Positions 6,320 through 22,217 of a stretch of DNA of 64,000 bases are shown here, piece after piece. The notes under the pieces are model-generated. The model made no database searches, had not been told where the DNA came from, and was given only the letters and a program-made list of their open reading frames with translations. Made by a program: the position numbers and the translations under genes. Positions within the stretch are counted from its first letter, which is position 1. Each line of letters begins with the position of its first letter. Source of the DNA: a virus (Duplodnaviria; Caudoviricetes). The DNA lies in IMG/VR virus record IMGVR_UViG_3300030099_003199, positions 50,847 through 114,846 of that record; one strand, written 5' to 3'.

Positions 6320-7222
6320 ATGGGACACAAAAAAGCGGTTACAACAACCAAAATTTATTTAGAAAATGCACCCTTACCATCACATGGTAAGACGTATACA
6401 GTGGTATCACATAAAGAAGTGATGGATCACACACAAAAACTATTAAAAGTTAATGGTTTTAAAATTAATAATCAATTATTTAAAGCAAGTATGAATGCTA
6501 GAGTGGCTCAAGGGATATACAATATCTCTGGAGTTAACTCTGTATCAGACAATGAAATTAGCATGATGTTTGCTTGGACAAACTCATATGATAAAAGTAC
6601 AAGATTTCAATGTGGAGTTGGGGCTTATGTAATGGTATGTAATAATGGAATGATCCATGGTGATATGGCCAACTATGGTCGTAAACATACAGGAACTGCT
6701 AATGCAGACATTGCAGTATCAATTGCACAACAAATAAGTGTAGCTTCACAAAATTTCAATCAACTTGTTCAAGATAAAAATGATATGAAAACGGTAAACT
6801 TATCTAATAAAAAACAAGCTGAATTCTTGGGTAGATTATTTGTTGAAGAAAAACTTCTTGACTCACAACAAATGACATGTGTAAAAAATGAAATGGAAAA
6901 AGCATCATACAATTATGGAGTAAATTCTGATTGTGCTTGGTCATTTTATAATCATGTTACACATGCATTAAAATTAACACATCCAAGAAACTGGATGAAG
7001 AATCAAGCTAAGTTTCATGAGTTTATGACAGCTGAGTGTTTAAGTAATACTAAAAATAATACTAAAGACACTTACACTAATTCTGAAGATGATATTCAAA
7101 TGCCTGAAGAACATTTAATAGAACTACCTGATGGTAGAATTATTGATGAGTTAGATGCTGCAAGACCAGAAAATCATGATACTGAGGATTATGATTCTTC
7201 AAATAATGTATTTACTTTATGA
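6320..7222 (+). CDS. DUF932-family protein
   Basis: Y..VSH..., W.NSYDKS.RF..GVGAYVMVCNNG, RKHTG and AWSFYNHVTHALK match the DUF932 pattern. ATG 6320 preferred over TTG 6311. Confidence 0.8.
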   Translation: MGHKKAVTTTKIYLENAPLPSHGKTYTVVSHKEVMDHTQKLLKVNGFKINNQLFKASMNARVAQGIYNISGVNSVSDNEISMMFAWTNSYDKSTRFQCGVGAYVMVCNNGMIHGDMANYGRKHTGTANADIAVSIAQQISVASQNFNQLVQDKNDMKTVNLSNKKQAEFLGRLFVEEKLLDSQQMTCVKNEMEKASYNYGVNSDCAWSFYNHVTHALKLTHPRNWMKNQAKFHEFMTAECLSNTKNNTKDTYTNSEDDIQMPEEHLIELPDGRIIDELDAARPENHDTEDYDSSNNVFTL

Positions 7223-7629
7223 GCAAACACAGTAAATACTATTGGGATACTGAGAGAAATAAACCTTTTGGGGAAATAACTCTCAGTTGTCCTCCTGGTT
7301 TAGAATTTAATACACCATATACATTAGAAGAAATAAAAGAAGCTATGAGCAATAAACCATCTAGAAAAGACTATCCTGTATATACAGGAGTTCTTAAATA
7401 TTTTCCTGATGCTCTTATGGAGTTATCAAGAGTTTCCTTACAAGGTAATATACAACATCATCCAGATAAACCTTTACATTGGGATAAAGATAAAAGTAAA
7501 GATCATTTAGATGCTCTTACTAGACATCTTATTGATGCAGATAAAACAGATGATGATGGTATATTACATTTAGCTAAAGTTGCTTGGAGAGCACTTGCAG
7601 CTTTACAAACTAAATTAGAAAATCAATAG
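7219..7629 (+). CDS. dATP/dGTP diphosphohydrolase-like protein (DUF5664 family)
   Basis: FPDALMELSRVSLQGN..H...W......HLDALTRH....DDDGILHLAKVAWRALA pattern. Alternative start at 7345. Confidence 0.75.
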   Translation: MSKHSKYYWDTERNKPFGEITLSCPPGLEFNTPYTLEEIKEAMSNKPSRKDYPVYTGVLKYFPDALMELSRVSLQGNIQHHPDKPLHWDKDKSKDHLDALTRHLIDADKTDDDGILHLAKVAWRALAALQTKLENQ

Positions 7630-8352: not shown

Positions 8353-9189
8353 ATGGCCATAAAGCGTCAAGTAACAAAAACATTAGTAACAAAAACAAAT
8401 AATAACAGTAGTGATTGCATAGCTCCTAATATAATCTATGGATGTATGGGGGGTTGTGTAAACACTTACTGTTATATGTCTAGATTTAACGGACGTAGAG
8501 TATTTGTTAATACTAATGTTAATGACATATTTAATTCTGTTCTTGCTTGGGAGGCGGGCTATACTAAAGTCCCTAACCAGCAAGATCCAGTATATACAAT
8601 GGTAGACATTGCATGCAACTCAGATTTAGTTCTGATGCAAAAGCATATGCCTGAACCATTACATGATTACCTTAAACGCTTTGATGATCATCCACAACTT
8701 AATAGTACTATGGCTACTAAGTATCCGGGTCTTCTTAAACTTGACGTTAATCATTTTAATAAACCACCTAGAGTAAGAGTAAGTCTTATGCCTCAAGCTT
8801 ATTCAGATGTATTAGAACCTAAGATGCAAAAAATTGAATCTAGAATACAAGATATTAATAGACTTAAGGATTTAGGATGGGAAGTACATTTAAATTTTTC
8901 TCCACTTATATTTATGCCAGGCTGGTCTAAACATTATGATAAGTTATTTAAACGTGTTAAAGAAGTAGCAGGTGAAAATAAATGTGAAGTTATTGCATTG
9001 ACCAATCATGTTAATCAAATGATTAAAGCTAGTGATGAGGCTCGTGAGATTATGAAATATTCTGATGAAGTTAAAAATGGATCAGGAGTGATGCGCTATC
9101 CAATAGCAAAGAAGCATAAACTTTTAGAAATGTTTAAACAAATCTATGCAAACTATTTTGACATAGGAACAATAAGATACATATTCTGA
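8353..9189 (+). CDS. Spore photoproduct lyase (SplB)-like radical SAM protein
   Basis: PNIIYGCMGGCVNTYCYM (CX3CX4C), DIACNSD (cf. SplB CTSD), ATKY, RVRVSLMPQ, VHLNFSP and C-terminal RY motifs. Confidence 0.8.
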   Translation: MAIKRQVTKTLVTKTNNNSSDCIAPNIIYGCMGGCVNTYCYMSRFNGRRVFVNTNVNDIFNSVLAWEAGYTKVPNQQDPVYTMVDIACNSDLVLMQKHMPEPLHDYLKRFDDHPQLNSTMATKYPGLLKLDVNHFNKPPRVRVSLMPQAYSDVLEPKMQKIESRIQDINRLKDLGWEVHLNFSPLIFMPGWSKHYDKLFKRVKEVAGENKCEVIALTNHVNQMIKASDEAREIMKYSDEVKNGSGVMRYPIAKKHKLLEMFKQIYANYFDIGTIRYIF

Positions 9190-10651: not shown

Positions 10652-10720
10652 TTAGCTGTTGTGAGAACCATCACAGTTCCCATTTTCATCTTTTGTTTTA
10701 CCACATACACATTGTGCCAT
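10652..10720 (-). CDS. CDGSH-type iron-sulfur micro-protein (22 aa)
   Basis: MAQCVCGKTKDENGNCDGSHNS; TAATG coupling to the upstream holin stop; ends 5 nt before the nuclease ATG. Confidence 0.75.
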   Translation of the reverse strand: MAQCVCGKTKDENGNCDGSHNS

Positions 10721-11112
10721 TATTTCTTTGTTTTTTCTAATGATCGTCCACCAAAATAGGCACCAATCACAGTGATTAATACTAATTGTAATAGATCAGT
10801 CCATTTAGCTTCAACAACAAAGTTAATAACACCTGCATCAATAAATATTAATAGCACTGTGCTTACAACCAAGAATGCTAAAGTTAATGGTCTAATATTT
10901 TTAGATAGCCATGAGTCAGACTTCATATCTGCTTGCCATCTGGAAGTTATTTCTTTTTCCATTTGGACCTCATAAGTAGCTACAAGTTCTTTCATTTTTT
11001 GTTTAGCAGCTAGCTTTTCTTCATCTGAAGTGTGTAGTCCATCAATGACACCACCAACACTTTCAACAAGATCTTTAGCTCCTCCACTAAATATAGTTCC
11101 TAGTATGCTCAT
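10720..11112 (-). CDS. Holin-like membrane protein (3TM/GTA-type holin family)
   Basis: RWQADMKSDSWLSKNIRPL followed by two TM helices and GAYFGGRS.EK. ATG 11112 preferred over GTG 11130. Confidence 0.75.
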   Translation of the reverse strand: MSILGTIFSGGAKDLVESVGGVIDGLHTSDEEKLAAKQKMKELVATYEVQMEKEITSRWQADMKSDSWLSKNIRPLTLAFLVVSTVLLIFIDAGVINFVVEAKWTDLLQLVLITVIGAYFGGRSLEKTKK

Positions 11113-11113
11113 C

Positions 11114-11290
11114 TTATCTTTCTCCACCACATCCGCAGCCTTTTGATGTTTTTCTTGGCTTTGGTGCTCTAGTTGTTAATTTAGTCAATAAACTTCTTTG
11201 ACCTCCATTTTTACCTACAGGTAATGCTTTGTTAGATTTACTATAACTACCACCACTCCCGTATGTTTTCATTTTATATGTTCCTGGCAT
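11114..11290 (-). CDS. Small basic protein (58 aa) with xxGG linker-like motifs and C-terminal GCGCGG
   Basis: MPGTYKMKTYGSGGSYSKSNKALPVGKNGGQRSLLTKLTTRAPKPRKTSKGCGCGGER. Confidence 0.65.
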   Translation of the reverse strand: MPGTYKMKTYGSGGSYSKSNKALPVGKNGGQRSLLTKLTTRAPKPRKTSKGCGCGGER

Positions 11291-12074: not shown

Positions 12075-12755
12075 TTATGTTGTTGTTGCTGCAAAATCAC
12101 TACTCATGTCCATGATCTTATATGTAATCCTAAAATAATAATCATCGTCTGGAGTTTGATTATAAGTTACTAATTGACCATATGTATTTGCATTTTGAGG
12201 TCTAAGTAATAATGGAACATTAGGATATGCTCTTGTTTGAGTTACTGGGGCATCTCTTACTATAATAGTATCAACTGCAGTACTTGTATTAAATACATTA
12301 TTAATTGTATGATTTAACATTTTCTTTTGAAGAGTTCCATAAGTGTTCCATTCAAAATTTGCTTGTGAAGAAGGAGTTTTAATTGCAAGTAATAAATTAC
12401 CACCCCAACCTCTAACTTGACCTCCACTCATTGGTGACCAAGTTCCTCTATCAATAAATACTTCAAGCTCTCTTACTACAATAACTTTATTAGCTCCAGG
12501 TGCAGGAATTAAAGTAATAAAAGTAGCTTCTGCAGTTGTCATAGCTTTAGCTTGAGCTCCTGTTACTTTTTTTACAATAACTTTTGAATCTTGAATTAAT
12601 GTTCCATCTTCAGAAAAACCAGCTGTTGTTCTAGTAGAAGTAGTATTTGGAAAACTTGCAGCATTTTTTAGAGTTAACTTTAAATCTTTTTCTGCAAAAA
12701 TAGTATTTCTAAAACGGGCAATTATATCTACAATATGTTCACCTATCCAGTTCAT
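12075..12755 (-). CDS. Hypothetical protein (possible tail fibre/virion protein)
   Basis: 226 aa; TLIPAPGANKVIVV...FRITYKI beta-sandwich-like C-terminal part. Confidence 0.6.
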   Translation of the reverse strand: MNWIGEHIVDIIARFRNTIFAEKDLKLTLKNAASFPNTTSTRTTAGFSEDGTLIQDSKVIVKKVTGAQAKAMTTAEATFITLIPAPGANKVIVVRELEVFIDRGTWSPMSGGQVRGWGGNLLLAIKTPSSQANFEWNTYGTLQKKMLNHTINNVFNTSTAVDTIIVRDAPVTQTRAYPNVPLLLRPQNANTYGQLVTYNQTPDDDYYFRITYKIMDMSSDFAATTT

Positions 12756-12937
12756 TTCTTTTTACGTTTTTTAGCAATTTTCTTAAGTGTTTTAGCAAAT
12801 CTGCATCTATAACCAGCCTTTTTGCTAGGCGGGTTCTTACAGTATTGTGCTATAGTCATACCTTTACGCTTAGCAGCAGCAGTTAGTGAGCCAGGCTTTT
12901 TTATAGCTTTTTTTATGTCTAATCTTTTCTTTGCCAT
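12752..12937 (-). CDS. Small highly basic protein
   Basis: IKKPGSLTAAAKRKGMT...RCRFAKTLKK; TAATG-coupled start at 12937. Confidence 0.7.
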   Translation of the reverse strand: MAKKRLDIKKAIKKPGSLTAAAKRKGMTIAQYCKNPPSKKAGYRCRFAKTLKKIAKKRKKK

Positions 12938-13200
12938 TAGCACTTCCAGCGTCTTCTTGCTTTACAAATTCTTTTATCTGGAGTTTTACTACAGTTAACG
13001 TTATGCATTCTCATCTGACCAGCTGATCTAGCGCAGTATGATTTTTTACGTTTACCTCCTCCAGGTTGTGGAGCTTTAAGTTTAGAGCCAGTTTTTCTAT
13101 TAATCATTCTACGGCCCTTAGCAGTAAGGCCACCTTTTTTACTCTTACAACCATTCTTGATTGTACAGCCTTTCATTGCACCTTTCTTTTTACTTGCCAT
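12937..13200 (-). CDS. Small highly basic protein (DUF6321-like)
   Basis: GGLTAKGR...KLKAP...RKKSYCARSAG...ARRRWKC. Confidence 0.7.
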   Translation of the reverse strand: MASKKKGAMKGCTIKNGCKSKKGGLTAKGRRMINRKTGSKLKAPQPGGGKRKKSYCARSAGQMRMHNVNCSKTPDKRICKARRRWKC

Positions 13201-13430
13201 TATTTTCCAACTTTTTTCTGTGCCATTTTATGAGAAGCTCCAAATGATGCACCTTTTTTCATAGCGTCAACCATCATTTTTATATGCTTCTTTGTATGAT
13301 GCACAGAATGTTTTTCTAATGTTTTTTGTTGTCTCATTGTTAATGAGCATACATCAACACCTTTTACTTTACCTATACATGCAGCCTTTTTTTGACCACC
13401 TTTCTTGTAATATTCTCTCATTTTTGCCAT
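13200..13430 (-). CDS. Small basic His-rich protein
   Basis: LTMRQQKTLEKHSVHHTKKH...F..SHKMAQKKVGK; N-terminal YYKKGGQ. Confidence 0.7.
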   Translation of the reverse strand: MAKMREYYKKGGQKKAACIGKVKGVDVCSLTMRQQKTLEKHSVHHTKKHIKMMVDAMKKGASFGASHKMAQKKVGK

Positions 13431-13434
13431 AATT

Positions 13435-13713
13435 TTACTTTTTTTTAGATTTAGATTTTGTTTTACGTTTCTTAATAGAGCTAGTTCTACGTCCCATACC
13501 TACTCTTTTCTTCTCTGCAACAGCTTTAGCTTTTTGTGACTTAGATAAAGAGCCCCATGTACGTGGTGTTTTGCTTGACACACGTTTAGTAGGTCTACAC
13601 TTTTTAGTGTTCTTATTCTTAGATGATCCACAAGGGTTACCTTTCTCATCTTTCCACTTCTCTTTAAACCAACGTTTAAGAGCTGCTCCTTTTGCTGTTT
13701 TTCTAACTGCCAT
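13435..13713 (-). CDS. Small highly basic protein (LKRWFKEKW motif)
   Basis: LKRWFKEKWKDEKGNPCG...KCRPTKRVSSKTPRT. Confidence 0.7.
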   Translation of the reverse strand: MAVRKTAKGAALKRWFKEKWKDEKGNPCGSSKNKNTKKCRPTKRVSSKTPRTWGSLSKSQKAKAVAEKKRVGMGRRTSSIKKRKTKSKSKKK

Positions 13714-13852: not shown

Positions 13853-14905
13853 TTAAAACACTTTATAGTTAATACCAAATTTAAAATCATACCATTCTCT
13901 GTCCCAGTATTTATTATACTTACCCTCTACAAATGCACCAAGATTTCTTGTTACTTTATAGCCAAAGATCATACCGCCAGAATAATCATACCATTGCTCA
14001 CCATCATTAAAATTGTGATAAGAATATTCACCTCCATCGTTATAGTGATAGGGTAGTATATTACCCCAGGCATGTAACCATATATCTTTATTATAAGTAT
14101 AATAATCAAAACCTATAATAAGAGAATGTACCCACTGATTAGGTAATTTGTCTCTCTCAGCAGCAACATAGTTAACTAACATTTCAGGAACTGCTACAGC
14201 TTCCCATACTTCTTTACTAGTTGCTACAGATGCTCCATCAGGATTAAAGTATTCTGCCCCGCCTTCACCATCAAACTCTATAGTGTATCCTTGATCTAGG
14301 GCCAATTGTGTATAATGCAATGATCCATTAGAAAGCATCCATTGCTCAAGCGGATTAAATCCATAGGGTTCTGATATTCTCTGACATGCCCCCACGTTAA
14401 AAGAGAGTTTACCCTTTGAATTTAACCTTAATCTTTGTGACGCTTGATAATATTCTATATCTGCAAAACCGTCTTGCATAAACTCTACACGTGTCATCCA
14501 CTTAGTAGTATTGTATCGTAAGAAGTGATTTTGATTGACAAACTCTTTACCCTGTTGTCTCGCATAATCAATCTCAAATAAATACTCAAAACCTTTCTTT
14601 ACTCTTCCTATAGTAGCTGCATCGTTAAATGATGTCTCTGTTCCATCTTTAAATGGTAATTGTGGTTCGTATTGAAATCTCTGAATCTTTCTAATCCCAA
14701 ACGTTAACGTATAATTATAAGGAGTTTCTACTACTTCATTTAATAAAGTTCCTGTAGCTACATCGTATACTATTTGATCTGATATTGAATTACCTCCATT
14801 AACAGATGAGTATAAAGTAGAATATTTAAAAAAATCTTTAAATACTTGACCGTTAGCTGTAAAACTAAAACAGAATAATAATATGAAAATAATTGTTCTT
14901 ATCAT
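13853..14905 (-). CDS. Predicted outer-membrane beta-barrel protein
   Basis: Sec signal peptide MIRTIIFILLFCFSFTANG|Q; alternating aromatic/polar strands; C-terminal beta-signal FKFGINYKVF. Confidence 0.7.
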   Translation of the reverse strand: MIRTIIFILLFCFSFTANGQVFKDFFKYSTLYSSVNGGNSISDQIVYDVATGTLLNEVVETPYNYTLTFGIRKIQRFQYEPQLPFKDGTETSFNDAATIGRVKKGFEYLFEIDYARQQGKEFVNQNHFLRYNTTKWMTRVEFMQDGFADIEYYQASQRLRLNSKGKLSFNVGACQRISEPYGFNPLEQWMLSNGSLHYTQLALDQGYTIEFDGEGGAEYFNPDGASVATSKEVWEAVAVPEMLVNYVAAERDKLPNQWVHSLIIGFDYYTYNKDIWLHAWGNILPYHYNDGGEYSYHNFNDGEQWYDYSGGMIFGYKVTRNLGAFVEGKYNKYWDREWYDFKFGINYKVF

Positions 14906-14908
14906 AAT

Positions 14909-15703
14909 TTAAATAGGAAAGTTGTATTTGTTTGTTATATATGCATGCAATTGAGCAATTTCAGCATCTGTTAATGCAGCTTTATATAACATAAATTCAT
15001 AAATTTTACCTTTATAGTATTGACCTGCAGTATTTGCTTTACCAACAAATAAATTACTTACTGTATTAACTGGATCACCAGTTATAGCTCCTGGAGAATT
15101 AGGAGATATGCCATTAAATATAACTTCAACTTCATCATTAACATTGTCAACCCTTTGTATAGCAACACCAAAATCTTTTTCAGTTGTTCCTACAGGATTA
15201 ATAGAATCAGAAGCTTGTCCACCTTGAGCATAAACAGTACCTATTAAAACATCACCACTCCATCTAAACGCATAACCATTAGGAGTTCTACCACCAGTTA
15301 TACCTGATACACCAGACTCTTGATCATTATCTTGAACTACAACTAAAGTATAATCTTCACCATAAGGCACTGAAATATTACCATTATCTCCATCAACTAA
15401 CGTATATGCTTTGTCAGTATTAGTATCATGTAAAGAATAACTTAAATTATTTTGGCCGTTTGTACCACTTAATTCAGGCTCTTGACCGGCAGTAGAAATA
15501 AGTTTATAATCATTCCAAGGTACTACAGTTGCTTTATTATCAATTGACTCTATAAGACTACCTGACAAAGCTACTGTATTTCTATCAGTCCAATCAAACC
15601 ATAGCACATTAGTACCCGCAGGTCCTACTTCACCTGGAGATGATGGAGCTCCTTCAAAGTAAGGAACTTTAGTTATTGGTAATCCTAATCCTAATATATC
15701 CAT
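14909..15703 (-). CDS. LamG/concanavalin A-like lectin domain protein (likely tail fibre/receptor-binding)
   Basis: LWFDWTD ... LFVG ... YYKGKIYEFMLYKAALTDAEIAQLHAYITNKY; N-terminal LGLGLPI. Confidence 0.75.
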   Translation of the reverse strand: MDILGLGLPITKVPYFEGAPSSPGEVGPAGTNVLWFDWTDRNTVALSGSLIESIDNKATVVPWNDYKLISTAGQEPELSGTNGQNNLSYSLHDTNTDKAYTLVDGDNGNISVPYGEDYTLVVVQDNDQESGVSGITGGRTPNGYAFRWSGDVLIGTVYAQGGQASDSINPVGTTEKDFGVAIQRVDNVNDEVEVIFNGISPNSPGAITGDPVNTVSNLFVGKANTAGQYYKGKIYEFMLYKAALTDAEIAQLHAYITNKYNFPI

Positions 15704-16062
15704 TATCCTTCTGCCTCTGTTCTAGTACTTCTTCTAGCGTAAGCTAAACATTTTCCAGACTTTATAACTAGTGTTCCTGCACTAATATATACTGTTAATC
15801 CTTTTGGTATTGTTATATCTGATGTATTAGTTAATGTAAGACCTAATACTCCTGCAGCAAGAGCAGCATCTCTCATTGCTACATTCCATTTAGAGTTTGT
15901 ACCATCAAGAACTGTATCTTCTAGAGCAGTTATAGCAAAAAATCCTTTACTAGTATCTGCTCTATATTTTTTATTAGCAGTATCTATATAAACAACAGTT
16001 CCAGGCTGTAAAGCTTCTGTTGTTTCTTCTTGTAATTTTGTTATATCCTTATCTATTTTCAT
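15703..16062 (-). CDS. Hypothetical protein (possibly structural)
   Basis: FFAITALEDT...ITIPKGLTVY...SGKCLAY pattern. Confidence 0.65.
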   Translation of the reverse strand: MKIDKDITKLQEETTEALQPGTVVYIDTANKKYRADTSKGFFAITALEDTVLDGTNSKWNVAMRDAALAAGVLGLTLTNTSDITIPKGLTVYISAGTLVIKSGKCLAYARRSTRTEAEG

Positions 16063-16064
16063 AA

Positions 16065-18542
16065 TTAATGTTTTATAATCTTATTAATAAATATTTTATC
16101 ATCTGTTGTTATATATAAATTATATAAACCATTTGAATAATCTGATATATCAACAGTATTTAAATTCTTTCCTTCTACAATTATCTTTCCTTGCATGTCT
16201 ATAACTTTTATTTCTACATTTAATCTAGTATCAATTCTAAAAATACCTGTTGTAGGATTTGGATATACTACAATACCTGTAGAAGATAAATCAGTTATAT
16301 TAGTTGGCCATCCTAATTGACAATAGTCATACATTGTTTGACATGTTGCATCCCAACTGTTTTCACAACAATATTCATCTACGTCTATTACCCAAGCATA
16401 ACATCCATCATTTAACCAATAAGGAATACCTGGTCCACCAATACATCCTGCATCATATAAACAAGATAAAGAATCATTTACGTTAGCCAACGGTTCATAG
16501 TTCCATGCAACTTGATCCATACAACCTTCAACCACAGTAATACACGTACCATTGTCAGTATTAGCCAATGGATCATAGTTAAGGGCAGTACTATCAGTAC
16601 AACCATAAATAAAAGGTATGCAACTAAAATCTTCTGTATTGGCTTGGGAGTTGTAGTTAAGCATAGAAGGGTCAGTGCAACCATAGATAAAAGGAATGCA
16701 ATTATTATCATCTGTGTTTGCTAAAGGGTTAAAATTAAACATTGTTGAATCCATACAGCCAAAAACAAAAGGTTCACAAGAACCATTATCTACATTGGCT
16801 AAAGGATTAAAGTTAAACATTGATGCATCTGTGCATCCATATACTATATCTATACAGGTTGAGTCATCTACATTTGCAAGTGGATTATAATTAAGCGCAT
16901 TAGGATCTGTACACCCAGGTACTGGTAATATACATGTTCCATCGTCTGTATTAGCAGTTGAATCATAATTAAGAGCAATAGGATTTGTACAACCATCAAT
17001 TACTGGTACACATGTTGAGTCATCAACATTGGCATTTATATTATAATTAAATGCTAAAGGATTTGTACATCCTTCTACTATTGCTATACATGAACCAGAT
17101 ATTTCTACGTTTGCTAGCGGATCATAGTTAAGAGCTGTTGAATCCATGCATCCTGCAACAATTAAAGTTGCACATGATCCATCATCATAATCAGCAGTTG
17201 TATCATATTCTAGATATAGTGGATTCATACATCCTGCTATATAATAACAAGAGCTATCATCTGTATTAGCCTCATCATAATAATTTAAAGCAAGGCTATC
17301 TGTACAACCAAATACTTTTTCTATACATGTATTACCACAATTAGTAACAAAAGCATAAGGAAACAAAGGCTGTATAAACGGTGGTTGAACACTAATTAAT
17401 GTATCACCTTCTGGATTAATGAGTGTAAATCCACATTCTATAGTTGTTAGTGCTGCTTGTGGGGATATATGAAATCTAAACACAGCTGGATCTGGAGCAT
17501 CTATAGTAAATTGATGTTCATCATTAAAACCTCCAGTGTGAGTAAATATGAAAGAAGTGTCAGGTAAATCTAGAGATAAGTGTGATCCTACCCAACCATT
17601 ACCCATAAGATCATGCAACACTAACGTAAATTCACATTGTGGAATAAGATCCATTGTATTTGCAGTAGAATCATAATTAAATGCTGTTGAGTCAATACAC
17701 CCAAATATCTTTAATGTTTGACAGCTACCATCATCAGTATCTGCAAAGGGGTTCCATTCTACATAATCATCATCTGTACATCCATATATAGGAGGACATT
17801 CACCTATAGTAAATACATGAGTACTGTCTGTACCAAAAGCCGGATCTGTACCATATACTAATGTATCTCCACATTGTTTAACAAAATAGGATCCATCTTG
17901 ACCTTGCCAAAGTGAACCTTGCATACCATCTCCATAATCATCAAATATTGTAAAGTTAAGATCTCCTTCTGGTAAGCATACTGGTACAGTTAAAGTGGCA
18001 TAATCTGGTTGTGATCCATAACCGCTTCCTGATGCTACTACTAAACCTAAAGAATCAGTTATCTCCCAAGATGTTTCTGATTGATACTGATCTAAATTAA
18101 TTATAACTGCAGCAGGAAAACATGGTGCTGGTGGTGGCCCATTAGGTTGACATGGTCCTAAATTAAAGTTTATTATTTCTGTAGCAAAGTAATTTGTTGG
18201 TGAAGATATAAATTCTACTATTGTATCTTGGCAATTATTCCATGTTCTAAAATAACCTTGTTGACCTGTATCTTGCCACCCATCTCCATATTGATCTAAA
18301 AGAATAGCTGTAAGTGGTTGAGCATCTATAAATAAAGTATCTAATAAATATTCACTTTGTACTGTAGGCTGATGATGATATACAGTATCACCTTGAACAT
18401 CTGTAATATAAAACTGTGACTCAGCTGGTCCCCATGAATCATATTGTGCTTCTATAACAAGATAGGAGTTTTGAGCACAACATTTTTTTGGAGTTACGCA
18501 TGCTGCTAAAATTAGTATTATTATAAATAAAAGTTTTTTCAT
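16065..18542 (-). CDS. Secreted Cys-repeat protein with C-terminal T9SS type A sorting domain
   Basis: Signal peptide/lipobox (ILAAC); three D.YGDG-type domains; 13 GCxDxxAxNY..A..DDGSC repeats; C-terminal VVYPNPTTG...NGLY...KIIK. Confidence 0.85.
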   Translation of the reverse strand: MKKLLFIIILILAACVTPKKCCAQNSYLVIEAQYDSWGPAESQFYITDVQGDTVYHHQPTVQSEYLLDTLFIDAQPLTAILLDQYGDGWQDTGQQGYFRTWNNCQDTIVEFISSPTNYFATEIINFNLGPCQPNGPPPAPCFPAAVIINLDQYQSETSWEITDSLGLVVASGSGYGSQPDYATLTVPVCLPEGDLNFTIFDDYGDGMQGSLWQGQDGSYFVKQCGDTLVYGTDPAFGTDSTHVFTIGECPPIYGCTDDDYVEWNPFADTDDGSCQTLKIFGCIDSTAFNYDSTANTMDLIPQCEFTLVLHDLMGNGWVGSHLSLDLPDTSFIFTHTGGFNDEHQFTIDAPDPAVFRFHISPQAALTTIECGFTLINPEGDTLISVQPPFIQPLFPYAFVTNCGNTCIEKVFGCTDSLALNYYDEANTDDSSCYYIAGCMNPLYLEYDTTADYDDGSCATLIVAGCMDSTALNYDPLANVEISGSCIAIVEGCTNPLAFNYNINANVDDSTCVPVIDGCTNPIALNYDSTANTDDGTCILPVPGCTDPNALNYNPLANVDDSTCIDIVYGCTDASMFNFNPLANVDNGSCEPFVFGCMDSTMFNFNPLANTDDNNCIPFIYGCTDPSMLNYNSQANTEDFSCIPFIYGCTDSTALNYDPLANTDNGTCITVVEGCMDQVAWNYEPLANVNDSLSCLYDAGCIGGPGIPYWLNDGCYAWVIDVDEYCCENSWDATCQTMYDYCQLGWPTNITDLSSTGIVVYPNPTTGIFRIDTRLNVEIKVIDMQGKIIVEGKNLNTVDISDYSNGLYNLYITTDDKIFINKIIKH
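16460..17320 (-). repeat. Tandem ~26-codon GCTD/DDGSC coding repeat (11 consecutive units; approximate bounds)
   Basis: Visible in the translation and as recurring TGCATCC/TACATCC/TACAACC on the + strand. Confidence 0.8.
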
Positions 18543-18544
18543 AA

Positions 18545-18890
18545 TTAAAAATCACTCATTATTAGTTCATCAATATATTCTTGTATCTCTTCTCTAGTAG
18601 CAACCATTTTAAAACTTAAATCTGCTTGAAAACGTTTTACTTCTTCTCCATCTTTAAACACTATTATCGTAGGTACTGATGCTATTGCATATTTAGATTG
18701 GTTATTATTTTCTTCTATTAGTAATCTTTTTTTATTACACTCTTTTAATTTTTCAAACCATTTTACATCATTAGCACTATTCCATTCTGCATTAAAATGT
18801 CTCACTGTTATCTGTGAAAAACACTCTAATGAGGCAAAAGATAAATAAAGCACAAACAAGTATGTTGCAAATGTTTTCCATTTATTTATT
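18545..18890 (-). CDS. Exported thioredoxin-fold protein lacking CxxC (start uncertain)
   Basis: HFNAEWNSAN at the FxAxWCxxC position, IASVPTIIVFKDGEEVKRF cis-Pro loop, signal-like YLFVLYLSFASLECFS|Q. Confidence 0.7.
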
Positions 18891-18893
18891 TTT

Positions 18894-19019
18894 TTATCTT
18901 CCTTGCCCACGGTATTTTGTTTTATAACCACTTTGACCTTTGCTAGCATTTTTACTATGTACTCCAGGTCTTTTGGTTCGTTTATTACCTTTAAATTGTA
19001 TTGTGGATTTTTTTCTCAT
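18894..19019 (-). CDS. Small basic protein (41 aa; RPGVHSK...YRGQGR)
   Basis: MRKKSTIQFKGNKRTKRPGVHSKNASKGQSGYKTKYRGQGR; starts 2 nt after the upstream stop. Confidence 0.7.
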   Translation of the reverse strand: MRKKSTIQFKGNKRTKRPGVHSKNASKGQSGYKTKYRGQGR

Positions 19020-19021
19020 TA

Positions 19022-19303
19022 TTATCTATTATATAATTTATCTTCTATCTTTTCTAAAGATTCTTTAATTTCTTTTACATCTTCCTGTGTTGTCATAATT
19101 GTACTACGTATCATTTGATCTTTCATATCAAACTCCATACGTGTTACTTCTGGATCAGGTGGAGCTGGTAACTCTTTTGCTTTTTGTATATCAGCTTGTA
19201 AAGTAAACCACATTCCAACAAGAGTAAAAATTAAAACTGCTATTCCTCCTAGTGTTTTTAAGCTTACTTTAAAACTTGTTTCTTCATTTAATTCCTTTGC
19301 CAT
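19022..19303 (-). CDS. Single-TM protein with C-terminal coiled coil
   Basis: LGGIAVLIFTLVGMWFTL, then TQEDVKEIKESLEKIEDKLY. Confidence 0.75.
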   Translation of the reverse strand: MAKELNEETSFKVSLKTLGGIAVLIFTLVGMWFTLQADIQKAKELPAPPDPEVTRMEFDMKDQMIRSTIMTTQEDVKEIKESLEKIEDKLYNR

Positions 19304-19307
19304 TTTA

Positions 19308-19883
19308 TTACATTAAATTTTGTTTCATACCATTACTTCCTGCAGGCATTCTAATTCTTTGTACATTTTTATTCAAAACTAATGTTGCAATAAAACCACT
19401 AGCTACATTAGATTTAAACTGAACTGATTGTACATCTGGAAATTCTAATTGATAATTTATAAAATCTATTTCTATTTGTCCTGTGTATGTTAAACCTGTC
19501 CAATCTGAAATAGTATTTGCATCGTGTCCTCCATTTCCATAGCCTTGTACAGAAGGGCTCATTACATGACTAAACATTACTATGTTATTTTTTCCTGCAC
19601 TAATTCCATTTGATGATCTTCTTGTGCTTCCTGATATAATTTTATCAGAAACTATTTCTCCTTCAAATTCTGTATTAGGGCTTTCAGGTAATCTAGATAT
19701 TAACTTAACTGACACAGTTATATCTGCAGCTCCTGTGTTTTGAATTACTATTTTATTAAAAGTAACTCCTTTTAGAAAGTTAGTTCTAGCAGAATCACGT
19801 GGTAATAAATCTGTCCACGTATTTGGTGTAACAGTTACTAATTGTTGATTTAAACCCGTATTGCCAGTATTAGAACGTGCCAT
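19308..19883 (-). CDS. Hypothetical protein (beta-rich)
   Basis: 191-aa ORF, TAATG-coupled to the upstream gene. Confidence 0.7.
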   Translation of the reverse strand: MARSNTGNTGLNQQLVTVTPNTWTDLLPRDSARTNFLKGVTFNKIVIQNTGAADITVSVKLISRLPESPNTEFEGEIVSDKIISGSTRRSSNGISAGKNNIVMFSHVMSPSVQGYGNGGHDANTISDWTGLTYTGQIEIDFINYQLEFPDVQSVQFKSNVASGFIATLVLNKNVQRIRMPAGSNGMKQNLM

Positions 19884-20191
19884 TATGCAAAGAACATTAA
19901 TTTAATTATGCAACCAACAACTGCAGTAAAAATTACCCAAAGTGCTTTTGTAACGTTATCTTTCCATTTTTTAAGAGACTCCATTTCTGCAATAGTTTCT
20001 TCATAATATGGTAAGAATTCATCTACTCTATCTCTAAAAGATGTATTCTTGTTAACTCTAGTTACAAAACCATTATCTGGATCTAACAATTTTTTGGTTA
20101 AAGAATCTAATTTTTTATCAATTTCATCTAATTTTTTTTCCATATTGTCAATTCTTAACCCCATTACTATAATATCTTGTTGAGAATCCAT
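19883..20191 (-). CDS. Coiled-coil protein with C-terminal TM helix (XhlA/holin-like)
   Basis: IDNMEKKLDEIDKKLD coiled coil; ALWVIFTAVVGCIIKLMFF TM. Confidence 0.65.
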   Translation of the reverse strand: MDSQQDIIVMGLRIDNMEKKLDEIDKKLDSLTKKLLDPDNGFVTRVNKNTSFRDRVDEFLPYYEETIAEMESLKKWKDNVTKALWVIFTAVVGCIIKLMFFA

Positions 20192-20357: not shown

Positions 20358-22217
20358 ATGAATCTAAGTAACAAAATTTTAAGTGAAATTACTGTTCATA
20401 TGAAGTATGCAAAATACTTACCTGAACACAATAGAAGAGAGACTTGGGAAGAACTTGTCACTCGTAACAAAAACATGCATATTAAAAAATATCCTGGTCT
20501 TGGAAATGAGATAGAGGATGTATATAAACTAGTATATGATAAGAAGATTTTACCTTCTATGAGATCTATGCAGTTTGGTGGTAAACCAATTGAAGTTAGT
20601 CCTAACCGTGTATATAACTGTGCGTACTTACCAGTTGATGCTTTAGATGCATTTAATGAAACAATGTTTTTACTTTTAGGTGGTACTGGTGTAGGTTATT
20701 CTGTTCAAAAACATCATGTAGATAAGCTTCCTTGTATAAATAAACCTTTTGCAAAAAGATCAAAAAGATATTTAATTGGTGATTCTATTGAAGGTTGGGC
20801 TGATGCTGTTAAAGTTTTAGTTAAATCTTACTTTGGAGCAAGATCATCTAAAATAGAATTTGATTTTTCTGATATTAGACCAAAAGGAGCTAGGCTAGTT
20901 ACATCTGGTGGTAAAGCTCCTGGACCTCAGCCACTTAAAGAATGCTTATTAAAACTTGAAGGATTATTAAGTAATAAAGAAGATGGTGATAAATTATCTA
21001 CACTTGAAGTTCATGATATGATTTGTCATATTGCTGATGCTGTATTAGCTGGAGGTATTAGGCGTGCTGCACTTATAAGTTTATTTAGTGCTGATGATGA
21101 TGAAATGATTGGTTGTAAATCTGGATCATGGTGGGAACTAAATCCACAACGTGGTAGAGCTAATAACTCTGCTGTACTTATGAGACATAAAATAACTAAG
21201 TCTTTCTTTATGGATTTATGGAAACGTGTTGAGTTATCTGGTGCTGGTGAGCCTGGTATATATTTTAATAATGATAAAGATTGGGGAACTAATCCATGCT
21301 GTGAGATTGCACTACGTCCTTTTCAATTTTGTAATCTTTGTGAAGTTAACGTAAGTAATGTTGAGTCACAAGAGGACTTAAATGAAAGAGTTAAGGCTGC
21401 TTCTTTCATTGGTACATTACAAGCTAGCTATACTAACTTCCATTATCTTAGACAGATATGGAAAGAAACAACTGAAAAAGATGCTCTCATTGGTGTATCT
21501 ATGACCGGTATAGCAAGTGGTAAAGTATCTTCTCTAGATCTTGCTGAGGCAGCAAAAATAGTAAAGAAGGAAAATGAATTTATTGCTAGACTATTAGGTA
21601 TTAACTCTTCAGCAAGATGTACTACTGTAAAACCTGCAGGAACTACATCATTAACTCTTGGAACTTCTTCTGGTATTCACGCTTGGCATAATGATTATTA
21701 TCTAAGAAGAATAAGAGTTGGTAAGAATGAAGCTATATATACATATCTTTCTGTAAATCATCCTGAGCTTATTGAAGACTGTGTATTCCGTGGACATGAC
21801 ACTGCAATTATTAGCATTCCTCAAAAAGCACCAAAAGGTTCAACCTTAAGAACTGAATCACCATTTGACTTACTAGAGAGAATAAAAAAGATTGCTACTG
21901 AATGGGTAAAACCAGGTCATAGAAAAGGTTCTAATACTCATAATGTTTCCGCTACAGTATCTCTTAAAGAAGATGAATGGGATAAAGCTGGTAAGTGGAT
22001 GTGGGAAAACAGAGACTATTATAATGGTTTATCTGTATTACCATATGACGGTGGTACTTATACTCAAGCTCCATTTGAAGATATAACAGAAAAACAATAC
22101 AATGAGCTAATAAGCTCAGTAACTTCTGTTGATCTTACAAAAGTTGTAGAACTTGATGATAATACTGATTTAAAAGGTGAACTTGCATGTGCTGGTGGTG
22201 CATGTGAAATTACATAG
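20358..22217 (+). CDS. nrdJ: Class II (adenosylcobalamin-dependent) ribonucleotide reductase
   Basis: LPSMR, YNCA, GGTGVGYS, GGIRRAA, TNPCCEI (catalytic Cys), FCNLCE, TTVKPAGT and C-terminal CAGGAC. No beta-subunit gene adjacent. Confidence 0.9.
   Translation: MNLSNKILSEITVHMKYAKYLPEHNRRETWEELVTRNKNMHIKKYPGLGNEIEDVYKLVYDKKILPSMRSMQFGGKPIEVSPNRVYNCAYLPVDALDAFNETMFLLLGGTGVGYSVQKHHVDKLPCINKPFAKRSKRYLIGDSIEGWADAVKVLVKSYFGARSSKIEFDFSDIRPKGARLVTSGGKAPGPQPLKECLLKLEGLLSNKEDGDKLSTLEVHDMICHIADAVLAGGIRRAALISLFSADDDEMIGCKSGSWWELNPQRGRANNSAVLMRHKITKSFFMDLWKRVELSGAGEPGIYFNNDKDWGTNPCCEIALRPFQFCNLCEVNVSNVESQEDLNERVKAASFIGTLQASYTNFHYLRQIWKETTEKDALIGVSMTGIASGKVSSLDLAEAAKIVKKENEFIARLLGINSSARCTTVKPAGTTSLTLGTSSGIHAWHNDYYLRRIRVGKNEAIYTYLSVNHPELIEDCVFRGHDTAIISIPQKAPKGSTLRTESPFDLLERIKKIATEWVKPGHRKGSNTHNVSATVSLKEDEWDKAGKWMWENRDYYNGLSVLPYDGGTYTQAPFEDITEKQYNELISSVTSVDLTKVVELDDNTDLKGELACAGGACEIT

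Follow-up and report, generated by a model that had tools for sequence, protein, structure and literature searches.

A phage-borne, co-inherited four-gene envelope module in an uncultured marine crAss-like phage and its possible role in lysis or egress

How the phages of the Bacteroidota pass the outer membrane of their hosts is an open question, since they frequently lack identifiable spanins of the canonical kind, as outlined in a survey of spanin genes (PMC6139136). A locus in a marine viral genome bears on this question. The window analysed here, 64,000 nucleotides in length, comprises bases 50847-114846 (the final 64 kb) of the 114,846-base IMG/VR virus record IMGVR_UViG_3300030099_003199, and between its positions 13853 and 19303 lie four genes, the products of which appear to be meant for every layer of a two-membrane envelope. 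An original prediction, made from the sequence alone, regarded these genes as a cassette that remodels the surface of the infected cell and listed superinfection exclusion, adhesion or aggregation, grazing defence, nutrient uptake and an unusual lysis aid as its possible functions. The questions that arise are whether the four genes truly belong together, whether their products reach the envelope, and what such a set would do for the phage.

The four reading frames were found where they had been predicted, co-oriented on the minus strand (Table 1). They encode an inner-membrane protein with a single transmembrane segment and a putative coiled coil (TMcc), a thioredoxin-fold protein (Trx), a Cys-rich type IX secretion system (T9SS) cargo protein and an outer-membrane beta-barrel. 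It is highly probable that they constitute a co-inherited module confined to phages, with products destined for the inner membrane, the periplasm, the outer membrane and the cell surface of a Bacteroidota host. Both the export of the proteins and the behaviour of the four genes as a unit have good support. The start of the Trx gene, placed earlier at about 18890, had to be revised, since the codon at that position is ATA and not a start codon; the gene begins with ATG at 18949, or with GTG at 18931 or 18910.

Signal peptides were scored by a crude rule of our own, in which a hydrophobic core is followed by a small-x-small motif and, after the cleavage site, Gln (Q). The rule is passed by the leaders of all 40 barrel, 31 of 34 Trx and all 30 cargo orthologues, and by none of the 34 TMcc orthologues, which have a hydrophobic core yet no cleavage-type site in any of them. 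The leader sequences diverge freely among the orthologues, with the hydrophobic core and the small-x-small motif before Q kept in 101 of the 104 exported ones, a pattern that marks signal peptides as functional. Gln placed after the site of cleavage is the 'Q-rule' feature described for the Bacteroidota (PMC5837995), and it has been observed for prophage proteins of Porphyromonas as well (PMC10367356). Thus, the earlier proposals that the exported proteins carry Bacteroidota-style signal peptides ending before Gln, and that the products are addressed to the envelope rather than to the cytoplasm, are borne out across the orthologues as far as leader sequences can indicate.

The cargo leader (18474-18542) also has a lipobox-like LAAC, followed by PKKCC, and is of the type [LIVMT]-[SA]-C-[AVS]-[ATS]-P-K-[KE]-C-C-[SAG] with Q after the cleavage site. 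A near-identical leader of this type is borne by the barrel in 12 of 40 relatives (loci named for it are L006, L013, L015, L021, L024, L029, L031 and L033-L036), the remaining leaders being unrelated in sequence. Its occurrence on two non-homologous genes could be due to leader swapping or could represent an extra sorting or acylation signal.

The linkage of the genes was examined from two anchors, which share contigs and are not independent. As the loci retained are the nearest relatives, the counts given here apply to that group. Among 42 viral loci anchored on the barrel, Trx is present in 34, TMcc in 33 and a cargo match in 36; where a given gene is missing (eight or nine loci), the locus is truncated, by the end of the contig or by the 10-kb flank, on the side that bears these genes in relatives, and counts neither as absence nor as presence. 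When the neighbouring genes are clustered, the four module families prove the most widespread, in 40, 33, 32 and 31 of the 43 sources; the two families that follow occur in 26 and 21. The set anchored on Trx consists of the 80 closest loci kept from at least 535 matching viral contigs. TMcc lies directly upstream of Trx in all 80, and the barrel is found, always co-oriented, in 74, the other six being short on the relevant side. A hidden Markov model (HMM) of the T9SS sorting domain matches 50 of the 80 loci, and 14 of the 15 long loci without such a match still encode a signal-peptide protein with 34-45 Cys residues and a divergent tail. Co-occurrence in other phages, the lack of which had been named beforehand as refuting the original prediction, is thus strongly evident from both the barrel and the Trx anchors.

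The genes are arranged in two orders, barrel-TMcc-Trx-cargo and TMcc-Trx-cargo-...-barrel, indicating that the four-gene set survives rearrangement. The gaps between neighbours are often no longer than 10 nt, frequently with overlapping stop and start codons (TMcc-Trx in 27 of 33 pairs, barrel-TMcc in 16 of 30, Trx-cargo in 13 of 30). In a comparison with G002, a phage of 80 kb, 17 of 90 open reading frames (ORFs) match and the four proteins head the list, with identities of 68% for TMcc, 62% for Trx, 58% for the cargo and 57% for the barrel, against 25% for the terminase and 24% for the portal. Similarly, the identities to G005, a representative of a third lineage, are 60% (TMcc), 49% (Trx), 43% (cargo) and 51% (barrel), against 23-26% for the terminase, portal and capsid protein. 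The module moves from one phage lineage to another as a unit. When genomes were selected by their portal only, all five long (near-complete) records were found to carry the barrel and Trx, the two genes searched for, and the module is core to a lineage of phages of about 115-129 kb.

Searches of deposited and cellular genomes are consistent with a distribution confined to phages. No match for the barrel, TMcc, Trx or three distant barrel relatives was obtained with tblastn against 50,697 deposited phage records. The Trx profile has five matches among 185,579 bacterial and archaeal species genomes, all of them on contigs of metagenome-assembled genomes (MAGs): two long contigs from Bacteroidota bins, which carry the module, and three short ones in unrelated bins. 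These five contigs are read as binned phage DNA rather than as cellular homologues. The host of the phage is probably a member of the Bacteroidota, as indicated by the sorting domain, the Q-rule sites and the two Bacteroidota MAG contigs with the module.

Table 1. Positions in the window of the four module genes, the two genes interleaved with them and two flanking lysis-related genes
Feature	Position	Strand	Description
TMcc	19022..19303	-	93-aa inner-membrane protein, single transmembrane segment, helical
Thioredoxin-fold protein (Trx)	18545..18949	-	exported, without CxxC; predicted cleavage between CFS and Q
T9SS type A cargo	16065..18542	-	825 aa, Cys repeats, signal peptide, sorting domain
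Interleaved 119-aa gene	15703..16062	-	no signal peptide; outside the module core
Interleaved 264-aa LamG/ConA-like gene	14909..15703	-	no signal peptide; outside the module core
Outer-membrane beta-barrel	13853..14905	-	signal peptide with cleavage between ANG and Q, about 14 strands, terminal Phe
XhlA-like small protein	19883..20191	-	C-terminal transmembrane segment; two genes upstream of TMcc; phrog_937 'hemolysin', E=3.2e-5
Holin	10720..11130	-	2.7 kb downstream of the barrel; phrog_3427, E=5.4e-32; GTA_holin_3TM, E=0.0003

The outer-membrane component was originally predicted to be a beta-barrel with a signal peptide and a terminal Phe, and the leader, the structural model, the fold matches and the C-terminal residue all agree with this assignment. 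The AlphaFold2 model, with a mean predicted local distance difference test score (pLDDT) of 82.8 and a predicted template modelling score of 0.75, has about 14 strands by our own count, a conserved periplasmic turn of 31 residues (74-104) and a surface loop of 78 residues (179-256); 35 of 40 orthologues end in Phe. In both fold searches, the matches of the model are almost all outer-membrane-type barrels, bacterial or mitochondrial; Foldseek gives NanC at E=8e-5, and VIA-align gives CymA at Z 10.9, KdgM, NanC and TamA at Z 10.2 and PorV at Z 8.1. At the sequence level, the barrel of the window has no Pfam or PHROG match, and 0 of 33 family members match any Pfam outer-membrane protein (OMP) family, including PorP_SprF and PorV-type families, at E<=1. 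An inspection of the conserved barrel residues, made without model coordinates, placed no catalytic triad of the OMPLA, PagL or LpxR kind, and such a site was not taken further as a candidate. The one strong match in BFVD is A0A516LKJ4, an unnamed viral protein of 342 aa in UniProt (E=5.6e-28, template modelling (TM) score 0.73, 24% identity). Barrels encoded by phages of two-membrane hosts have precedents in lambda Lom, a phage-encoded outer-membrane barrel, and in the cyanophage family Phage_OMP (PF24653). The cluster of the latter is among the nearest named neighbours of the barrel in the Atlas (score 0.93), but the barrel has no PF24653 match and its BFVD matches to Phage_OMP proteins are weak (E 0.04-0.2). 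Both the barrel and the head of the cargo fall with unnamed viral clusters only in the Atlas.

TMcc is predicted to have a short N-terminal cytoplasmic part, a transmembrane segment at about residues 17-35, a Pro-rich stretch (AKELPAPPDPE) and an amphipathic helix of about 45 residues. It is well conserved, with a mean column identity of 72% over 28 sequences. The protein of the window has no Pfam match and no PHROG match at E<=0.01; among the 28 members, 11 match phrog_12220 and 11 match phrog_1009, neither of which has an assigned function. By predicted topology, TMcc is the sole protein in the genome with its N-terminus inside, its C-terminus outside and a helical periplasmic part. This is the topology of an i-spanin, but the periplasmic part has only about 57 residues and the heptad periodicity is modest, with 8 of the 13 a/d positions hydrophobic in the best-fitting register.

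A thioredoxin fold for the exported product of 18545-18949 is supported by a profile match and a retained loop. The single protein matches Pfam Thioredoxin weakly (E=0.0044, below the cut-off), and the profile of 33 homologues matches almost exclusively solved thioredoxins, the best being 2vim (E=8.7e-6); the cis-Pro 'VPT' loop is kept and P93 is invariant. Thus, the family resembles the thioredoxin superfamily (PF00085) in profile and cis-Pro loop, but differs from it in being exported by a signal peptide and in its active site: each of the 33 homologues has lost the CGPC loop and has no Cys at this position, and a C-x-x-C occurs in only six, inside the signal peptide. The original prediction had the thioredoxin fold chaperone the disulfide-rich cargo. 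Catalysis of disulfide formation by it is not supported, and the loss of the loop leaves a non-catalytic holdase or an adaptor as the only possible role. The C-terminal Phe of Trx (last codon 18545-18547) is invariant in 34 of 34 sequences, as in outer-membrane proteins.

The T9SS sorting domain proposed for the Cys-repeat protein was confirmed as type A, residues 759-823 matching PF18962 Por_Secre_tail well above the Pfam cut-off (E=1.3e-12, 48.3 bits against 27). Across 28 orthologues, 13 reach the cut-off, a further 7 match at E<=0.01 and 8 have no match; many of those below the cut-off have a divergent tail of the form D(I/L)LGR...IYxDG. The cargo, which would be delivered to the cell surface by Sec and the T9SS of the host, has the layout of a fibre: the signal peptide is followed by three beta-sandwich modules, about 12 Cys-knot repeats, a Cys-rich knob and the sorting domain. 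Most of its 44 Cys residues lie in repeat units of about 26 residues (GC-T-D..A.NY..AN.DD.SC), of which at least 7 conform to the strict pattern C-T-D..A.NY..AN.DD.SC and about a dozen can be recognised by eye. The N-terminal third is predicted to form three beta-sandwich domains (pLDDT 68.1), and this head model matched generic multi-sandwich proteins alone (TM score <0.2), so that no enzyme or lectin family could be named from it. None of the 2336 homologues of the cargo is named, and the length and the number of modules vary among relatives, from 601 to 1130 aa. The Cys-knot repeats recur, in several copies, in an 1802-aa protein of the structural block of the same phage (G000:C1:7021-12429, L003, lying outside the window; BLASTP E=2e-13, 32% identity); the two proteins share the stalk repeats only and not the head domains. 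A similar repeat is present in a protein of Synechococcus phage S-CAM3 annotated as 'virion structural protein'.

T9SS cargo genes in phages are known already, from the 'Cryophage' (Bellas et al. 2020, PMC7468147), which encodes a type A cargo, and from ORFs with T9SS sorting domains in the vicinity of the crAss-BACON genes (de Jonge et al. 2019, PMC6949934). As in the present case, these are phage genes with PF18962 that presumably use the T9SS of a Bacteroidota host. The cargos described in those reports, however, belong to variable islands and comprise glycoside hydrolases, PA14 proteins or BACON proteins, whereas the cargo of the module is a lineage-core Cys-knot fibre locked to three envelope genes. 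No description of the four-gene set was found in the literature searched, with subscription journals and supplements outside the search, and the set appears new to that literature.

The genes surrounding the module suggest what it may be for. In the window, it is flanked by the XhlA-like gene upstream and by the holin gene downstream, and in relatives a DUF5675 protein (E=7.6e-29), an amidase (phrog_822, E=7e-13) or a holin follows within a few genes. Loci were scored when at least 7 kb of sequence was available downstream of Trx, and a window of 8 kb downstream was searched; of the 54 such loci, a holin family is found in 29, a DUF5675 or amidase family in 33 and either in 38, all co-oriented with the module. 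A six-frame scan of the whole genome detected no lipoprotein-type spanin candidate, only the cargo leader and one internal artefact, and no small outer-membrane lipoprotein gene beside an i-spanin gene. The 91 phages without identifiable spanins in a published survey include Bacteroides and Croceibacter phages (Kongari et al. 2018, PMC6139136).

Since the module is core, sits with lysis genes and provides the only i-spanin-like protein of a phage otherwise without spanins, the reading favoured here is that of a late-acting envelope device tied to lysis or egress, to which the T9SS fibre would be an accessory on the cell surface; we give it a probability of about 0.4. The module would be made late, along with the structural and lysis genes, and the tightly coupled trio of barrel, TMcc and Trx would act on the envelope at the end of infection. 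Most likely, the trio would help to open or detach the outer membrane after the holin and the wall hydrolase have acted, standing in for the lipoprotein spanins missing from this genome. The fibre would have been transferred along with the trio and, because its stalk modules recur in the large protein of the structural block, may have the same binding target on surfaces as the virion. The 'unusual lysis aid', which the original prediction had placed last in its list of functions, thus moves to the front by virtue of the gene neighbourhood, and superinfection exclusion, also on that list, fits a core rather than accessory module less well.

Comparison with two-component spanins such as lambda Rz/Rz1 (PMC6139136) shows the extent of the likeness. 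In both cases, the phage infects a host with two membranes and encodes, near a holin and a wall hydrolase, an inner-membrane protein of (here predicted) type II topology whose periplasmic part is helical, beside the gene of an outer-membrane component. The module differs in that this component is not a lipoprotein but a barrel with about 14 strands, in that a third, thioredoxin-fold protein is always present, in the lack of sequence similarity to spanins and the short periplasmic part of TMcc, and in being far more conserved than the portal and terminase of its own phage.

Several of these features weigh against a role in lysis. The periplasmic part of TMcc is below that of lambda Rz in length, and a barrel, in place of a small lipoprotein, would need the barrel assembly machinery (BAM) of the host. 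In contrast to the fast evolution of spanins, the conservation of this set is unusually high. It is not obvious what an 825-aa T9SS fibre with 44 Cys residues would contribute to the rupture of a membrane, and still the fibre is conserved together with the trio (58% identity with G002). The set of the 80-kb lineage is embedded in the tail block, flanked on either side by crAss ring proteins, and the neighbourhood therefore points equally to tail fibres. None of the three lysis-related families occurs within 8 kb downstream in 16 of the 54 scorable loci, and the one link between DUF5675 and the hydrolysis of the wall is a weak match to Tlde1 (E=0.008). A complex prediction with barrel residues 20-350, TMcc residues 34-93 and, as the partner, Trx residues 46-134 scored 0.00 against a mark of 0.32 in a run without controls, and counts neither way.

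A rival reading, surface remodelling to the benefit of the infection or of the progeny, would have the T9SS fibre coat the infected cell and, later, its debris and mask the receptor, resulting in superinfection exclusion or the prevention of re-adsorption, with the trio as envelope support. The cargo is indeed adhesin-like, having beta-sandwich heads on a Cys-knot stalk and a surface-anchoring sorting domain, and both the recurrence of the Cys-knot module in the 1802-aa structural-block protein and the cyanophage 'virion structural protein' and the variable length and module number of the cargo agree with such a role. However, what the cargo has in common with the structural protein is confined to the stalk repeats and does not extend to the heads; the module, present in all five portal-picked genomes, is core and not accessory, and it lies within the late structural and lysis block and not among early genes. 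In addition, conservation of the barrel is similar in its surface loop and in its strands (0.47 against 0.46-0.61), giving no sign of diversifying selection. We therefore regard surface remodelling as unlikely. The same low standing is given to a self-contained system of fibre display, in which the barrel would be the base or shuttle of the cargo, Trx a holdase and TMcc a tether, with adhesion or aggregation of the infected cells as the outcome. A T9SS cargo with a cognate outer-membrane barrel is known from SprB/SprF and from the PorV shuttle, and there too a sorting-domain cargo is encoded beside an outer-membrane barrel. Fibre display would account for the co-conservation and joint movement of the four genes and for the finding that, in 11 of 30 loci, the stop codon of Trx overlaps the start codon of the cargo, and redox-inactive thioredoxin folds, such as the b' domain of protein disulfide isomerase, can bind unfolded Cys-rich clients. 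Nevertheless, a cargo with a type A sorting domain is not known to need a private barrel, none of the 33 members of the barrel family matches the Pfam families named above, and PorV scores no better than, and indeed below, unrelated barrels.

The reading with the least to recommend it treats the products as ordinary virion parts, with the leaders and the sorting domain as relics of their folds, or the barrel as a nutrient porin, that is, an auxiliary metabolic gene. The position of the genes in or beside the tail block, the acidic-sugar channels NanC and KdgM among the fold matches and the conserved Arg and Glu residues within the strands of the barrel are in its favour. A relic would hardly keep its hydrophobic core and cleavage motif throughout so many freely diverging leaders, and a porin leaves the coupled TMcc, Trx and cargo genes unexplained, which makes this reading very improbable. 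The lysis or egress reading can be extended: the trio may represent a third, hitherto undescribed route for breaching the outer membrane, specific to the Bacteroidota, besides spanins and disruptin-type peptides, with the co-inherited cargo engaging the T9SS translocon or the surface in the same exit step. This extension is speculative and, on balance, doubtful; if it holds, a mobile 'exit cassette' spanning every layer of the envelope would be carried by abundant marine phages of flavobacteria.

The module is thus a concrete candidate for the means by which Bacteroidota phages exit through the outer membrane, and it adds three protein families without known function. It is abundant in marine viral DNA, with 3111 homologues of the barrel and Trx on at least 535 viral contigs. 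Whatever its role, these phages would seem to use the Sec pathway, the outer-membrane barrel assembly machinery and the type IX secretion system of the host together.

The two genes interleaved between cargo and barrel had been taken for probable virion genes. Their interleaved position is confirmed, and their virion nature has sub-threshold matches only in its favour. The 119-aa protein, whose family occurs in 17 of 43 sources, matches Phage_cement_2 at E=0.0038 (18 bits against a cut-off of 24), and the 264-aa protein matches Laminin_G_3 at E=1.2e-5 (25.9 bits against 27.6) and phrog_10356, 'virion structural protein', at E=0.0019. In other lineages, a family related to the 264-aa gene lies between the Trx and cargo genes. 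The region between barrel and holin (12752-13713) encodes a run of small, strongly Lys/Arg-rich proteins, two of which match DUF5872 (E=8e-15) and DUF6321 (E=4.3e-17).

The source genome is that of an uncultured marine crAss-like tailed phage. The record is rated complete by CheckV and its ends overlap each other by about 100 bases. A terminase (phrog_6681, E=2.6e-62), a portal (phrog_6547, E=1.5e-92), a major head protein (phrog_11589, E=2.3e-28) and the tail ring proteins CrAss_Ring_1 and CrAss_Ring_2 are present, together with a DNA polymerase of family B and a class II ribonucleotide reductase. The portal shares 22-25% identity with that of gut crAss-like phages, and its best cultured match is Leptolyngbya phage Lbo-JY46 (33% identity). 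The DNA occurs in 20 sequencing runs from 10 studies (marine, estuary and sponge metagenomes), among which no RNA run is listed.

The genome also carries giant ORFs in a row, of up to 5145 aa. Between 22466 and 63947 of the window, six such ORFs lie on the minus strand (1846, 5145, 1121, 1121, 968 and 1383 aa) along with one of 2191 aa; the latter matches phrog_37948, 'virion structural protein', and the five of the six that were scanned (the 5145-aa ORF being outside the scan) have no Pfam or PHROG match. The class II ribonucleotide reductase gene (20358-22217), directly upstream of the module, is the lone plus-strand gene within the long minus-strand late block. Of two further ORFs, at 7219-7629 and 8353-9189, one carries the N-terminal domain of a dATP/dGTP diphosphohydrolase (PF18909, E=2.9e-11) and the other is a radical S-adenosylmethionine protein resembling spore photoproduct lyase (PF20903, E=4.2e-18), a pair that may hint at nucleotide-pool editing or DNA modification.

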